Assembly (NCBI GenBank): GCA_046293555.1
Contig: JBKBOT010000004.1
Location: 5,485-69,484 of the forward strand
Source of the DNA: Pyrobaculum sp.
GTDB taxonomy: Archaea > Thermoproteota > Thermoprotei > Thermoproteales > Thermoproteaceae
DNA: 64,000 bases
Reading direction: 5' to 3'
The notes under the pieces are model-generated. The model saw only the letters and a list, made by a program, of their open reading frames with translations. It made no database searches and was not told the DNA's origin. The position numbers and the translations under genes are program-made. This document shows, in pieces, positions 59,317 through 63,929 of the stretch. The stretch's first letter is position 1; each line of letters begins with the position of its first letter.

Positions 59317-60687
59317 ATGGAGGAACTTCTCCTCAGGGCTGTGGACTATGGGCTTCAGCTCGGGGCAGAGTATGTAGAGGCCAGGTGGCAACTAGACGTG
59401 GGGGAGGCGGCGGGGTTGCGAAATGGCGAGTTTGAGTTCTCCTCCACCTATAGACATGGGGGGGTCTCCATACGTGTGCTAGCCGGCGGGGGGCTTGGCT
59501 TCTCCGCCACGCCTAGGGTGGAGGTAGTGGACGTGTTGGGAGCCGTGGAGAGAGCCTATAGGCTCGCCAAAGCCGCTGGCTCTTTTAGAAAACGGCCTGT
59601 AGCCCTCAGCGAGGAGAGGCTGGCCAACGTGAGGTATTTCCTGCCGGAAGTCTCCACAAGCCCTCTAGAGGTGTTGAAAGAGCTAGACGGCCATGTGGAC
59701 CGTGGGCTGTCTGTACGTAGGCTTGTCGGCGCCGTGTGGCTTACTGAGAAGCTTGTTGTGACTAGCGACGGGGGTTATGTATATAGCAAAATCCCCCGCG
59801 TCTATGTTTTCGCCATGTTTATTAAACACGGCGCGGGGGGGAGTCTGCAGAGAGATCTATTTGCCGGCGGGGTTTCCCTAAAGGCGTTAAGGGGGTTTGA
59901 AAAAGTGGTGGAGGAGGAGTCTAGAAAGGTCTCCCTCCTGTTGGAAAAGGCGAGAGCCATAACGCCCGGCAGATACGACGTGGTGTTTAGCCCAGAGATG
60001 GCGGGCATATTGGTACACGAGTCTGTGGGGCACCCCTTTGAGCTAGATAGGATTTTCGGCCGGGAGGGCGCAGAGGCTGGGGAGTCATACATAAGGCCTG
60101 GGGATCTATATGTAAAAATCGGCAGTGACCATGTAAATATTGTAGACAACCCGACGCTTCCGGAGACTTACGGCTTTTATCTAGTAGACGACGAGGGAGT
60201 TGTGGCTAGACCCAAGTGGCTAGTCAGAGAGGGACGTGCCTCCGAGTTTATCTCCAATAGGCAATACGCCGCGTTGATCAATAGCCGTAGCAACGCCGGC
60301 GCTAGGGCTTCTGCTTTCGACAGAGAGCCTATCCCCAGGATGTCAAATACGTACCTCCTCCCCGGCGGCTGGAGCCCCGAGGAGATTATTAGAGACACGA
60401 GGAGGGGAATATACGTGGTGTCATATACCGAGTGGAATATAGATGACGTGAGATATTCCGGCAGATATGGCATTTTTGAGGGGTATCTTATCGAGAATGG
60501 GGAGTTAAAACACCCAGTGAAGGGCTTTATTGAGGTAGACACGCCGGAGCTTTGGGGCGGGGTAGACGCGGTGGGGAAAGACTTCAAGCTTTTTGTTGGC
60601 ACTTGCGGCAAGGGGAACCCCGTACAAGGCGTCCCCGTCACTATGGGCGGCCCCACCTTTAGGAGTAAGTCTCTTAGGGTGATATGA
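59317..60687 (+). CDS. tldD: TldD-family metallopeptidase
   Basis: HESVGHPFELDR, DDEG, RMSNT, GTCGK. Confidence 0.93.
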   Translation: MEELLLRAVDYGLQLGAEYVEARWQLDVGEAAGLRNGEFEFSSTYRHGGVSIRVLAGGGLGFSATPRVEVVDVLGAVERAYRLAKAAGSFRKRPVALSEERLANVRYFLPEVSTSPLEVLKELDGHVDRGLSVRRLVGAVWLTEKLVVTSDGGYVYSKIPRVYVFAMFIKHGAGGSLQRDLFAGGVSLKALRGFEKVVEEESRKVSLLLEKARAITPGRYDVVFSPEMAGILVHESVGHPFELDRIFGREGAEAGESYIRPGDLYVKIGSDHVNIVDNPTLPETYGFYLVDDEGVVARPKWLVREGRASEFISNRQYAALINSRSNAGARASAFDREPIPRMSNTYLLPGGWSPEEIIRDTRRGIYVVSYTEWNIDDVRYSGRYGIFEGYLIENGELKHPVKGFIEVDTPELWGGVDAVGKDFKLFVGTCGKGNPVQGVPVTMGGPTFRSKSLRVI

Positions 60688-61961
60688 TTCTCCGCTTGTT
60701 TTCCAACAGGGTGGATGAAGCCGCCTTGGTGAAAGTCTCACAGAAGAACTACATGGCGAGATTTGCTAACGACGAGGTGACTATATTTAAACACTGGACT
60801 TCCGAAAGCCTTTACCTATACCTAGCGAGGGGGAGGAGGGCCCTCTATGTAAACATGTCTGGAGGGTTGGACATACAGATGTTAGAAAGAGAGGTGAGAC
60901 GTCTCTCCACACTGCCGGAAGACCCTCTTTACGTCCCGCTTGGAGGGCCCACGCCTGGCGTCTATCAAGAGCCTGAGGGAGACCCGGAGAGGCTTGTAGA
61001 TCTGGTGAAAACCGCTGTGGATAACACGGAGGGGGTGGAGAGAAATGCCGGCGCGGCGCGTATGATTTACTCAACTGTGGAGTATGAAGACACCGCCGGC
61101 CGCACGGGCCGGTATGCGCTTAACAAGATCTTTCTCACCATGAGGTCTTTCGCCGGGGAGCTTTCTGTAACTAACACCGCTGCCGGAAGGCAGGAGGTAG
61201 ACGCCAGGAGGCTAGCTGTCGCCAACTCGCAGCTGTTAAGTCTAGCCAGGGGGCTGCCGAAAAGGAGAGCTGAGGCCTCGAAAACACGGCTGTTGCTCTC
61301 CCCAATTGTCTTTGGCCACCTCATGGGCGAGGTGGCCATGCATTGGGTCAACGGAGGGGAGGTCATAGCGCAAACCTCTCGGTACACAAAAGAGGATTTG
61401 GGCAAGGAGGTGGCTTCTGAAAACTTGACTCTAGTGGAGACGACTTACTACCAACATGCCTACGGCTTTACTCCTTTCGACTTTGAGGGAATCCCGCCGA
61501 GGAGGGTGGGGATATTCGACAGGGGCGTGTTGAAAGAGTTTATACATAACCGACGTACTGCCGCCAGGCTTGGCGTAGAGTCTACTGGACACGCCCTAGG
61601 GGGTTGGGTCAGGCCCTCGCCTGGACATGTGGAAGTGGCGCCCGGCGATATTCCACACGACGTGGAGATATTAATGACAGAACTGAGGAGGGGGTATTAC
61701 ATACATAACAACTGGTATACAAGATATCAAAACGTCAAGACCGGCCAGTTCTCCACCGTGGGTAGAGATTTAGCGCTAGAGGTAATAGACGGGAGGCCTG
61801 TCGCCGTTGTGAAGTTTGTCAGAATTGCCGACACTTTAGAAAACATAGTGAGAAATATAGCGGCTCTCTCGAAAGAGGCAGAACAAGTGTATTGGTGGGA
61901 TATGGTCGTGCCCGCCACTGCGCCTTATGCGATAATTCAAGACGTCGGGATAACCACGTGA
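60684..61961 (+). CDS. pmbA: PmbA/TldE-family protein
   Basis: FDFEG, STGHA, G.FST; follows tldD. Confidence 0.85.
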   Translation: MILRLFSNRVDEAALVKVSQKNYMARFANDEVTIFKHWTSESLYLYLARGRRALYVNMSGGLDIQMLEREVRRLSTLPEDPLYVPLGGPTPGVYQEPEGDPERLVDLVKTAVDNTEGVERNAGAARMIYSTVEYEDTAGRTGRYALNKIFLTMRSFAGELSVTNTAAGRQEVDARRLAVANSQLLSLARGLPKRRAEASKTRLLLSPIVFGHLMGEVAMHWVNGGEVIAQTSRYTKEDLGKEVASENLTLVETTYYQHAYGFTPFDFEGIPPRRVGIFDRGVLKEFIHNRRTAARLGVESTGHALGGWVRPSPGHVEVAPGDIPHDVEILMTELRRGYYIHNNWYTRYQNVKTGQFSTVGRDLALEVIDGRPVAVVKFVRIADTLENIVRNIAALSKEAEQVYWWDMVVPATAPYAIIQDVGITT

Positions 61962-61993
61962 AAATTTAAAAAGCCGCTAATTATATATACATA

Positions 61994-62082
61994 GCGGCCG
62001 TAGCTCAGCGGGAGAGTAATGCCCCGAAAGCGCCCGGCTGAAGACCGGGCGGTCCCGGGTTCAAGTCCCGGCGGCCGCACCA
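61994..62082 (+). tRNA. tRNA-Phe(GAA) with a 14-nt intron at position 22/23 (62015-62028); CCA encoded
   Basis: Acceptor GCGGCCG/CGGCCGC, anticodon arm CCCGG-CTGAAGA-CCGGG, T-loop TTCAAGT. The D stem GCTC/GAGC forms only after removing AGTAATGCCCCGAA. CGGG/CCCG helix with AGA and AAA bulges. TTTAAAAA at 61965. Confidence 0.93.
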
Positions 62083-63407
62083 TCTTCTCGATATTACTTT
62101 CCTCTTTCATCACGCCGTTTTTCGCCACAGCCCTAAGTGTCGCTCTCCCCTCCATAGCTAGAGAGTTCGTAATTCCCTCTAGCTCCACCTTAGGCCTACT
62201 GGTGGCATTAACTACGGCAATCGCCGCGTTTGTCCTCCCGGCTGGCCAACTTGCCGACATGAAAGGCTATGCGAGAATATTTAGGGCCGGCCTTTTGATA
62301 GTCCTAACGGGACTTGTCGTAACCTCTGCTGCCCTCACGCCGGCGTGGCTTTACGCCGGCTTGACTATAGCCGGCTTAGGGCTCGCCATGGTGTTTGGCA
62401 GTAACAACGCCTTGTTGATCCAGTTGGCGCCCCCGGGGAGGCGGGCGTCTCTAGTGGGGCTAAACTCCATGGCGGTATATATAGGCTTGGTTTTAGGCCC
62501 GCCGACAGGCGGCATGTTGGCTGAAATAAGCTGGAGGCTAGTCTTCCTGCCGGCAATTGCGTTAGGCGTTATCTCTTATCTCCTCTCTTGTGGCATAAAG
62601 TCAAAGGGGGCTGCCGGCAGGTTAGACCTCCTGGGGGCAGTGGGGTGGGGCGCCACGGCCGTCTTGTTGATACTTGGCACGCAGAAATACCAACTGTTGG
62701 CCTTTGGGCTTTTGGCCTTGTTGTTAACTCTATTGGCAGAACGCAAGGCTGTAAACCCGCTTATAGACCCCGCCTCTTTTAAAAACGTGGTTTTTTCAGC
62801 CTCTGTAGCTGCCTCGTTTTTAAATTATCTCTCCACAGCTGCCCTCATCCCCGTGTTGAGTCTATTATTTCAGGAGACATACGCCCTCTCCCCCGGAGTG
62901 ACCGGCTGGATACTCGCCCTACAGGCGTTAGCCATGGCCGTGTTAGCCCCCATATCGGGGAGAATTAGCGATAGGCTATCCCCGCCCGCTGTGGCCACGG
63001 CAGGTTCGGCCGTATTGGCCGGAGGCCTCCTGTTATGTGCCCACACGCCCCACCCAATGTGGGCTATCCCCTCCCTGTTTATAATCGGCGTCGGCTTTGC
63101 CCTCTTTATAGTTCCTAACACCACAATTATACTCACCACAGCCGCCTCTAGAGGCTTTGGGTCGGCCGTAGTTGCAACATCTAGAGTATTAGGCCAATCT
63201 ATGAGTAACGCCCTGGCCGTATATATGTTAAGAGATGTCACGCCTGAAGAAGTGGCCAAATTGTTGTTCTTACTAGTAATCTTTGCAGTGATGTCAGCCT
63301 TCCTCTCGGCAGTTCGCCTATCTAAAGTCAGGAAGGGGGCTTACAGCTGTCTGCAAGACTTAAGCTGTCTGACGGCAATATTAAAACAATCTACATTAGC
63401 CCATTAG
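62019..63407 (+). CDS. MFS drug/H+ antiporter (DHA2/EmrB-like); start uncertain, overlaps the tRNA
   Basis: SFITPF..AL.VALPSI, G.LAD..G..R, GP..GG.L, G.ISDR; about 14 TMs. Confidence 0.8.
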   Translation: MPRKRPAEDRAVPGSSPGGRTIFSILLSSFITPFFATALSVALPSIAREFVIPSSSTLGLLVALTTAIAAFVLPAGQLADMKGYARIFRAGLLIVLTGLVVTSAALTPAWLYAGLTIAGLGLAMVFGSNNALLIQLAPPGRRASLVGLNSMAVYIGLVLGPPTGGMLAEISWRLVFLPAIALGVISYLLSCGIKSKGAAGRLDLLGAVGWGATAVLLILGTQKYQLLAFGLLALLLTLLAERKAVNPLIDPASFKNVVFSASVAASFLNYLSTAALIPVLSLLFQETYALSPGVTGWILALQALAMAVLAPISGRISDRLSPPAVATAGSAVLAGGLLLCAHTPHPMWAIPSLFIIGVGFALFIVPNTTIILTTAASRGFGSAVVATSRVLGQSMSNALAVYMLRDVTPEEVAKLLFLLVIFAVMSAFLSAVRLSKVRKGAYSCLQDLSCLTAILKQSTLAH

Positions 63408-63929
63408 CCCCCAGTCGGGCACTTTAAAGTCCTTACGTAGGGGGTAGAGGGGCTTTCCGGTCTTCTCGTCTATACAACAGTCTGGGTCTAGTAGAAACCT
63501 CTTGCCCATATGGGGGTTGCCCTCAAACCAGATGCCAAACATCTCGTGGCATTCTCTCTCGTCGTAATCTGCAGAGGGGAATATGTCGGCAATGCTGTCT
63601 ATCTTCGGGCTGTCTCTAGGTATTTCCGCCCGGATGTGTAAAAGCTGGCTTCTCAACTCGGGCGTTAGATAGGAGGCAAAGACGTATATCACCAGAAGTT
63701 TCCTCTCTGCCAGATAGTCCACGGCGCTTAGTGACAACACGTGGTCAAACCCCAGTTTCTTCACGGCGGCGGCCACCTCTCTGATCTTCTGTGGGGGCAC
63801 CATTACGCAGAGATGTCCCTCAGGCGTCACGCCGTGGTTAAGAAAGCTCTCCCCCAACGCCTCTCTCACCTTTTGGAGTAATGTATGTTCTCCCGCCTGT
63901 GGGCACTTGGGCGGAATTTTTGCCGACAT
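63396..63929 (-). CDS. nuoC: NADH dehydrogenase-like complex subunit C
   Basis: LSAVDY, ERECHEMFGIWFEGNP, YPLRKDF. Confidence 0.9.
   Translation of the reverse strand: MSAKIPPKCPQAGEHTLLQKVREALGESFLNHGVTPEGHLCVMVPPQKIREVAAAVKKLGFDHVLSLSAVDYLAERKLLVIYVFASYLTPELRSQLLHIRAEIPRDSPKIDSIADIFPSADYDERECHEMFGIWFEGNPHMGKRFLLDPDCCIDEKTGKPLYPLRKDFKVPDWGLMG

Follow-up and report, generated by a model that had tools for sequence, protein, structure and literature searches.

The stretch of DNA analysed here (the window, 64,000 nucleotides, G000:C4:5485-69484) comes from a Pyrobaculum metagenome-assembled genome (MAG) that is 96% complete and is referred to as G000; its relatives carry Pyrobaculum names in the source records. 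Near the end of the window lies a phenylalanine tRNA gene with an intron in the D arm, and directly behind it, with zero spacer, the gene of a major facilitator superfamily (MFS) transporter. The reading frame of the transporter extends back through most of the tRNA gene. The sole canonical start codon in this frame before the first transmembrane segment (TM1) lies in the variable loop of the intron, as ATG in G000 and as GTG in a second genome, G001. Judged from these two sequences, the DNA here probably serves twice, as a tRNA gene and as the beginning of a protein-coding sequence.

The tRNA-Phe gene and the transporter reading frame

The tRNA at window 61994-62079 scores 57 bits with Rfam RF00005, for which the gathering threshold is 29, and shows a 14-nt excess in the D arm. 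The CCA is encoded in the DNA (62080-62082), and the gene including it spans 61994-62082. By direct reading, the anticodon arm CCCGG-CTGAAGA-CCGGG forms a 7-nt loop on a 5-bp stem with the anticodon GAA, which identifies the gene as tRNA-Phe(GAA). In an alignment with the tRNA-Phe genes of 17 relatives, the mature sequence is near-identical to that of the congeners, and the 14 extra nucleotides, AGTAATGCCCCGAA, are located between bases 1 and 2 of the D-stem 3' strand. The D-stem GCTC/GAGC is restored once 62015-62028 are removed.

Local folding gives a 4-bp helix between CGGG (62009-62012) and CCCG (62023-62026), and the inferred cuts, AG/A and AA/A, are both 2 nt 3' of the helix strands. On its outer side the motif has a 3x2 internal loop beside the D stem, while the inner helix has at most 1 bp, i.e. 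the motif is relaxed. Apart from being a relaxed form, with hardly any inner helix, the predicted cut geometry is what one would expect of a site for the archaeal splicing endonuclease. The intron misleads ARAGORN, which types the gene as Ser(cga) or Phe(aaa).

A pattern covering the anticodon and T arm, allowing at most 3 mismatches, has a single match in G000 and a single match in G001, and this is therefore the only tRNA-Phe gene in each of them. At 96% completeness, an overlooked second copy in G000 is unlikely but possible. The one candidate, an ARAGORN Phe(gaa) call at G000 C10:52870-52988, was rejected as it does not fold as Phe. ARAGORN gives this 119-nt tRNA gene one intron; by eye it seems to contain several, and it may be a tRNA-Val(TAC).

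The MFS frame opens after a TAG at 62001-62003 (tRNA positions 8-10) and stays open to 63407. The predicted protein matches Pfam MFS_1 with 108 bits (cutoff 33.4), and position 1 of the profile falls on residue 25. Its best NCBIfam match, TIGR00711 (DHA2/EmrB), reaches 93 bits and is under the curated cutoff of 230; the protein is therefore described as DHA2-like, not as a DHA2 or EmrB member. The tail encoded within the tRNA reads MPRKRPAEDRAVPGSSPGGRT, 21 residues, and TM1 (IFSILLSSFITPFF...) starts at the last base of the CCA. After the intron ATG, the next ATG, GTG or TTG in frame is the GTG at 62202, codon 62, beyond TM1. Between 62083 and 62201 all three are absent in frame, and only ATC and ATA are present. 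These positions had been described in the original prediction, a reading of the window's letters by a model: the frame open through the 3' two-thirds of tRNA-Phe, the ATG at 62019-62021 inside a 14-nt intron at 62015-62028, TM1 starting at the CCA and a further start only about 60 codons on. Both the frame reading and the alignment bear this out.

Gene calls disagree on where the fused gene starts. For G000, NCBI uses the ATA at 62091 (438 aa) and Logan the intron ATG (462 aa), while the call in G001 starts at the intron GTG (L002 1492, 356 aa). Two other origins of the protein could be ruled out. A start at GTG 62202 would give a protein without TM1, a segment found to be under strong purifying selection (see below), and read-through from the upstream PmbA gene, which is in the same frame by chance, is blocked by three intervening in-frame stops.

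To score promoters, a position weight matrix (PWM) was built from the upstream regions of the other 42 tRNAs called by ARAGORN in G000. Its consensus, AAAAATTTAAAAAG, is positioned at -35 to -31 in nearly all of them, and the median score is 16.9 bits. Upstream of tRNA-Phe, the TATA box TTTAAAAA (61965-61972) with an A-rich B recognition element (BRE) predicts a transcription start at or beside tRNA +1. This is the box that had been proposed as spaced for the tRNA 5' end, and with 19.3 bits at offset -34 the proposal holds. By PWM score, it is the only strong predicted promoter available to the MFS gene. Since no promoter would fit into the junction of tRNA and MFS gene, transcription of the latter must come through the tRNA.

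G000 has four other pairs in which a tRNA is followed by a gene, and in these a TATA box comes right after the tRNA and the start codon is at +27 to +38. In the four pairs (C8:1851-1944, C14:30733-30848, C6:41974-42059, C1:98349-98421) the TATA box begins within about 12 nt of the tRNA 3' end, and these boxes look like minimal leaderless promoters packed onto tRNA ends. The coordinates of all features at the locus are collected in Table 1.

Table 1. Features at the tRNA-Phe/MFS locus of G000, in window coordinates.
Feature	Position	Strand	Evidence and remarks
PmbA/TldD-family metallopeptidase gene	60684-61961	+	Pfam PF19289, E 8e-45
BRE/TATA promoter of tRNA-Phe, GAAAATTTAAAAAG	61960-61973	+	19.3 bits on the PWM, usual offset -34; kept in G001
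Second TATA-like element, CTAATTATATATAC	61977-61990	+	3.6 bits on the PWM; no counterpart in G001; weak candidate promoter for an RNA from about 62010
tRNA-Phe(GAA) exon 1	61994-62014	+	5' strands of acceptor stem and D stem, the D-loop, base 1 of the D-stem 3' strand; Rfam RF00005, 57 bits; alignment with 17 relatives
Non-canonical D-arm intron, AGTAATGCCCCGAA, 14 nt	62015-62028	+	Insertion relative to intron-less tRNA-Phe genes; helix CGGG/CCCG
ATG in the intron loop, proposed start codon	62019-62021	+	Sole ATG/GTG/TTG of the MFS frame 5' of TM1
MFS transporter open reading frame, 462 aa from the intron ATG	62019-63407	+	Pfam MFS_1; DHA2/EmrB-like best match
tRNA-Phe exon 2 and encoded CCA	62029-62082	+	Read in the MFS frame as KRPAEDRAVPGSSPGGRT(I), the proposed N-terminal tail
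ATC codon, its A shared with the CCA end; rival near-cognate start	62082-62084	+	ATA at the aligned codon of G001
ATA codon, start in the NCBI gene call	62091-62093	+	Database protein, 438-aa product beginning MLLSSF
T5 run in the Phe-Phe codons of TM1	62118-62122	+	36 nt past the tRNA end; T6 in G001 (L002 1604-1609); possible partial archaeal terminator, a role suggested by the T run
NADH dehydrogenase 30-kDa subunit gene (nuoC)	63396-63929	-	Pfam PF00329; faces the MFS gene (convergent) and is also its neighbour in G001 and G005

Age of the fusion and selection on the gene

The junction of G000 is reproduced base for base in the independent Logan assembly of run SRR31360860. G001, a 1.2-Mb MAG, has an identical tRNA, and its junction is as long as that of G000, measuring 18 nt to a shared ATATTAC. 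With two assemblies and a second genome showing the junction, an assembly chimera is ruled out. According to a search with the junction pattern, the fusion is present in 2 of the 29 genomes of the family, G000 and G001. In a collection of genome contigs the intron pattern matched only G001 and Thermoproteus sp. AZ2, and no further fusion was found in a collection of metagenome contigs with either the intron-specific pattern or a pattern for the junction from the tRNA end to FITPF. A search of 5.8 billion proteins returned no member of the clade beyond the two fused proteins.

Full-length orthologs of the transporter are present in ten other Pyrobaculum genomes, with 46-54% identity, and an ortholog is missing in 6 of the 17 other Pyrobaculum genomes searched. 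We read the ortholog starts in nine of the ten full-length genomes and in database orthologs in the alignment. They begin M-(D/E/N/R)-R-x-L..., 7-8 residues ahead of a conserved LSSF motif in TM1, and none of the non-fused Pyrobaculum orthologs overlaps a tRNA. The ortholog of G005, the only one for which the upstream DNA was read, starts with a leaderless GTG, and a TTTTTAA box of its own lies about 26 nt upstream. Comparison of the fused genes with these orthologs shows that a rearrangement in the ancestor of G000 and G001 put tRNA-Phe directly against codon 3-4 of a DHA2-like MFS gene and removed the TATA box and the leaderless start codon of that gene. The original prediction had suggested aligning the N-termini of orthologs to see if the tRNA overlap and the intron ATG are conserved. 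In G001 the overlap and an in-frame intron start are both found, the start being GTG and not ATG; the other orthologs do not share the overlap.

The shared fusion is deeply divergent. G000 and G001 are sisters on the MFS tree (support 100/98) with terminal branches of 0.34 and 0.53 substitutions per site, and the two fused proteins are 59% identical, i.e. 41% of the residues differ. For comparison, the PmbA proteins of the two genomes are 65% identical to each other and 58-62% identical to those of other species. Between the fused genes the proportion of differences is 0.28 at nonsynonymous sites (pN) and 0.68 at synonymous sites (pS, saturated), for a dN/dS of about 0.2. In G000 the frame of 462 codons is unbroken. 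The G001 gene has a 1-nt deletion in a C run (L002 ~2545-2560, window ~63075; ATCCCCCGCTG vs ATCCCCTCCCTG in G000) and is truncated at 356 aa, and the truncated product is present in both the ENA/NCBI and the Logan contigs. In the part 3' of this frameshift pN is 0.24 and pS 0.76, the corrected frame contains no stops and the proteins are still 65% identical.

TM1 follows the same pattern. Among the 29 codons from 62082 to 62168, which cover TM1 and the residues after it, 15 have only synonymous changes and 6 have amino-acid changes. Since the changes are mostly synonymous, TM1 is translated in the MFS frame, and the start must be at or upstream of ~62082-62091. The substitution pattern shows that the MFS gene, TM1 included, has been under purifying selection in both lineages since the fusion. 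From the deep divergence of the shared fusion and the dN/dS of about 0.2 it follows that the fusion is old and that the MFS gene is not a dead 5'-truncated relic. A 5'-truncated pseudogene is expected to have a dN/dS near 1 and to accumulate stops and frameshifts, while we found about 0.2 and the single 1-nt deletion in G001. One option put forward from the window alone was a 5'-truncated gene captured behind the tRNA; as a dead relic it is rejected, given a junction common to two lineages and a pS of 0.68-0.76.

Where translation starts

The introns of the two fused genomes differ in most of their sequence and agree in offering a start. The G001 intron, CGTGGCGCAACCCCGAA, has 17 nt, 3 more than that of G000, and shares with it just the 3' CCCCGAA and a GT. 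Its in-frame GTG is located one codon 5' of the position of the G000 ATG (AGTAATG... in G000, CGTGGCGCAA... in G001). Thermoproteus sp. AZ2 has a homologous intron, GGCCTCGGAGGCCCCGAA, at the same position of its tRNA-Phe, with no gene downstream. That intron contains no ATG, GTG or TTG in any frame and forms a GC hairpin in place of the open AU-rich loop of G000. The helix and the cut motif are kept in all three genomes, and so is the 3' half CCCCGAA, while the 5' half is variable. When the variable intron segments were randomised in a simulation, an in-frame start past the last in-frame stop appeared with a chance of 0.09 for the geometry of G000 and 0.13 for that of G001; the joint chance of in-frame starts in both introns is ~0.011 if the two genomes are taken as independent.

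A second line of evidence comes from the residue just before TM1. Of the 11 aligned full-length Pyrobaculum orthologs, 10 have Arg in this column; the remaining one has His with an adjacent Arg. In both G000 (R20) and G001 the Arg is supplied by the CGC of the tRNA acceptor stem, and it is kept only if translation starts upstream; a start at the ATC or ATA would lose it. Furthermore, neither lineage has turned the junction ATC/ATA into ATG, which is one substitution away, despite the saturated synonymous sites. This would be surprising if translation began at the junction.

We favour a model in which the tRNA and the transporter are transcribed together from the tRNA promoter and translation begins within the intron of RNA that has not yet been processed, and give this reading a probability of about 0.45. 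The option of an intron start codon, already among those first proposed, has thus gained comparative support from the in-frame GTG of G001, the AZ2 control without a start and the chance of ~0.01. According to this model, the MFS mRNA would be the primary transcript of the tRNA promoter, from tRNA +1 or near it. GGGAG and AUG, some 25 nt from the 5' end of the nascent RNA, would be exposed long before synthesis of the 3' acceptor strand. A ribosome arriving before the tRNA is folded and processed would start at the intron AUG and read exon 2 into the transporter, adding the basic 21-residue tail before TM1. Otherwise the RNA would fold as a tRNA, the splicing endonuclease would excise the intron with its AUG, and the 3' cut by tRNase Z would separate the tRNA from an untranslatable trailer, severing the start from the body of the gene. 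Each transcript would then give either a tRNA or a transporter, and strong transcription of the tRNA would yield small amounts of transporter as a by-product. The T5/T6 run may stop many transcripts and keep the transporter level low, and in G000 the weak second TATA-like box may add some tRNA-incompetent RNA from ~62010.

The full version of this model goes further: the DNA would be read twice, as tRNA-Phe exon 2 and as about 20 transporter codons, the intron giving the start codon, and processing by splicing endonuclease or tRNase Z would compete with ribosome loading on every nascent transcript. We regard it as somewhat unlikely as a whole. If true, transporter synthesis would report the balance of tRNA maturation and translation, rising for instance when stress slows tRNA processing.

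Several points weigh against a start in the intron. The GGAG at 62011-62014 is 4 nt 5' of the ATG in G000, as had been noted from the window; the motif is there, but as a ribosome-binding site it is weak, with only 1 nt between it and the GTG of G001, and the 16S 3' end needed for a Shine-Dalgarno check was not found in the G000 MAG. The openness of the MFS frame through exon 2 was dropped as evidence, as two of the three frames are open there. The T5/T6 run 36 nt beyond the tRNA could terminate most transcripts. The tRNA comes from the sole tRNA-Phe gene of the genome and has to fold efficiently, in competition with ribosome loading. Finally, the fusion is known from two genomes only, which are not fully independent, and the G001 copy, one of these two witnesses, may be a recent pseudogene.

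The best of the alternatives is a near-cognate start after release of the tRNA, which had also been suggested before; we consider it unlikely and prefer the start in the intron. Here the tRNA and the MFS gene would be co-transcribed as well and tRNase Z would cut after the discriminator base, much as in mitochondrial tRNA punctuation. The released RNA, 5'-CCAUCUUC in G000 and 5'-UAAUAACG in G001, would be nearly leaderless and start at the AUC/AUA on its third nucleotide or at the ATA at 62091. Both genomes do have an in-frame ATH codon exactly 2 nt past the discriminator (ATC and ATA), and the ATA at 62091 is conserved and is the start in the database call. However, Ile codons are frequent in transmembrane segments (29 of the 462 codons of the frame), and an ATH codon at the junction is thus weak evidence. 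Moreover, the ATC of G000 would not survive a cut made 3' of the encoded CCA. In ribosome profiling of Haloferax, ~30% of the putative alternative initiation sites are near-cognate (PMC7261190), but AUG, GUG and UUG are the reported start codons for all classes of archaeal mRNA (PMC7531240). A single substitution would give ATG at two to four junction codons, and none has been fixed in either lineage. The explanation also gives up the Arg before TM1 and leaves both the in-frame intron ATG/GTG and the 3-nt difference in intron length unexplained.

Quite improbable, in our view, is a separate mRNA independent of the tRNA. A promoter within the tRNA gene or immediately before it, for which G000 has the box TTATATAT at 61981-61988, would produce an RNA from ~62010 that cannot fold as tRNA and is translated from the intron ATG, uncoupling expression from tRNA processing; this would be a G000-only variant of the intron start. 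The spacing is suitable, with the centre of the box ~26 nt from a pyrimidine-purine step at 62009/62010 and a leader of 8-9 nt containing GGGAG. The original prediction had named this box as a second TATA element, and the sequence is present, but as a dedicated mRNA promoter it is weak, 3.6 bits against the median of 16.9 for tRNA promoters. G001 shares the fusion and has no equivalent element, so a tRNA-independent mRNA cannot be the ancestral solution.

Very improbable is a silent, decaying gene that lost its expression after the fusion, with the G000 frame a leftover and the intron starts a coincidence: the G001 frameshift, a gene dispensable enough to be missing in 6 of 17 genomes and a chance of ~10% per genome for an in-frame intron start all fit, but a fusion older than the separation of two lineages that differ at 41% of residues and are saturated at synonymous sites, the dN/dS of ~0.2, the intact frame of G000 and the G001 part after the frameshift, 65% identical and free of stops, are incompatible with long-term neutrality and allow at most a recent inactivation in G001.

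Genomic context and known systems

The order PmbA ... tRNA-Phe ... MFS ... nuoC, with nuoC on the minus strand, is kept across the genus. PmbA orthologs were found in 10 of 10 Pyrobaculum genomes tested, with 58-65% identity. Outside G000 and G001 the tRNA-Phe gene is 0.3-3.4 kb from the MFS gene and mostly on the opposite strand, and in G005 the neighbourhood holds two further genes, one on either side of the tRNA. In G006 (C1 984336-988731) and G008 (C1 1344267-1348978) the MFS orthologs are equally similar, while the orientation of tRNA-Phe relative to MFS differs, which suggests repeated inversions around tRNA-Phe.

In G000 the stop codon TGA of PmbA overlaps the BRE/TATA of the tRNA promoter (61959-61973, GTGAAAATTTAAAAAG). 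The two genomes with the fusion are small, 1.75 Mb for G000 and 1.2 Mb for G001, compared with 2.0-2.5 Mb in six single-contig congeners that carry the MFS gene. Both observations are consistent with genome compaction in the G000/G001 clade, and the locus shows how genome reduction can push genes into each other. For annotation, masking tRNAs before gene calling would hide such overlaps.

Pyrobaculum genomes differ in where tRNA-Phe carries its intron: P. calidifontis (G017, L004 176-264) has it in the anticodon loop, and G003 (L046) in the anticodon stem, on the 5' side. In G013 (L047, L055) 3' halves of tRNA-Phe are located at two contig ends, which could mean that the gene is split or duplicated, or could be an effect of the assembly.

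Gene overlaps and links between tRNAs and mRNAs are known in several forms, of which this arrangement in two genomes would be a variant. Units in which tRNAs and mRNAs are co-transcribed include the thrU-tyrU-glyT-thrT-tufB operon of E. coli and the tRNA punctuation of mitochondria. As in these, a protein gene lies directly 3' of a tRNA, on the same strand and with no promoter of its own, and the nucleases acting on the tRNA would set the fate of the mRNA. There the start codon is outside the tRNA, whereas here 21 codons, including the sole canonical start, are inside the tRNA gene, and tRNA maturation would remove the start instead of releasing a translatable mRNA. If the favoured reading is true, this would be a rare structural RNA exon doubling as protein-coding sequence in a cellular genome, selected across a deep split, and the locus offers a concrete, testable system for competition between ribosomes and RNA-processing enzymes in hyperthermophilic archaea.

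Bulge-helix-bulge introns are also found in archaeal mRNAs, in the cbf5 pre-mRNA of Crenarchaeota and in the 5' untranslated region of Haloferax HVO_1309 (PMC7714728). Like these, the present transcript would be a protein-coding RNA with a putative motif for the tRNA splicing endonuclease, and the predicted cut would alter what can be translated. For cbf5 and HVO_1309 splicing is needed for protein expression or improves it, whereas here it would delete the start, and the spliced product would be a tRNA.

Second functions of tRNA introns, besides removal, are known as well. According to excerpts from PMC4090602, the tRNA-Trp intron of Haloferax contains a C/D-box guide, and tRNA introns can disrupt viral attB sites; among the uses given in these excerpts there is no start codon for a cellular gene that extends beyond the tRNA, and our literature searches found no published case of a tRNA intron giving the start codon to a gene that continues through the exon. 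The intron proposed here would have a second function of this kind, and if translation truly begins in it, this would be a new one for an archaeal tRNA intron.

In structure, the intron resembles the relaxed hBH/HBh' tRNA introns of Thermoproteales as these are described in the same excerpts (PMC4090602): it is short, outside the anticodon loop, and has a 4-bp helix with predicted cuts 2 nt 3' of each strand. A homolog is present at the same position in the tRNA-Phe of Thermoproteus sp. AZ2; the inner GC hairpin of that intron is replaced in G000 and G001 by an open loop with an in-frame ATG or GTG.

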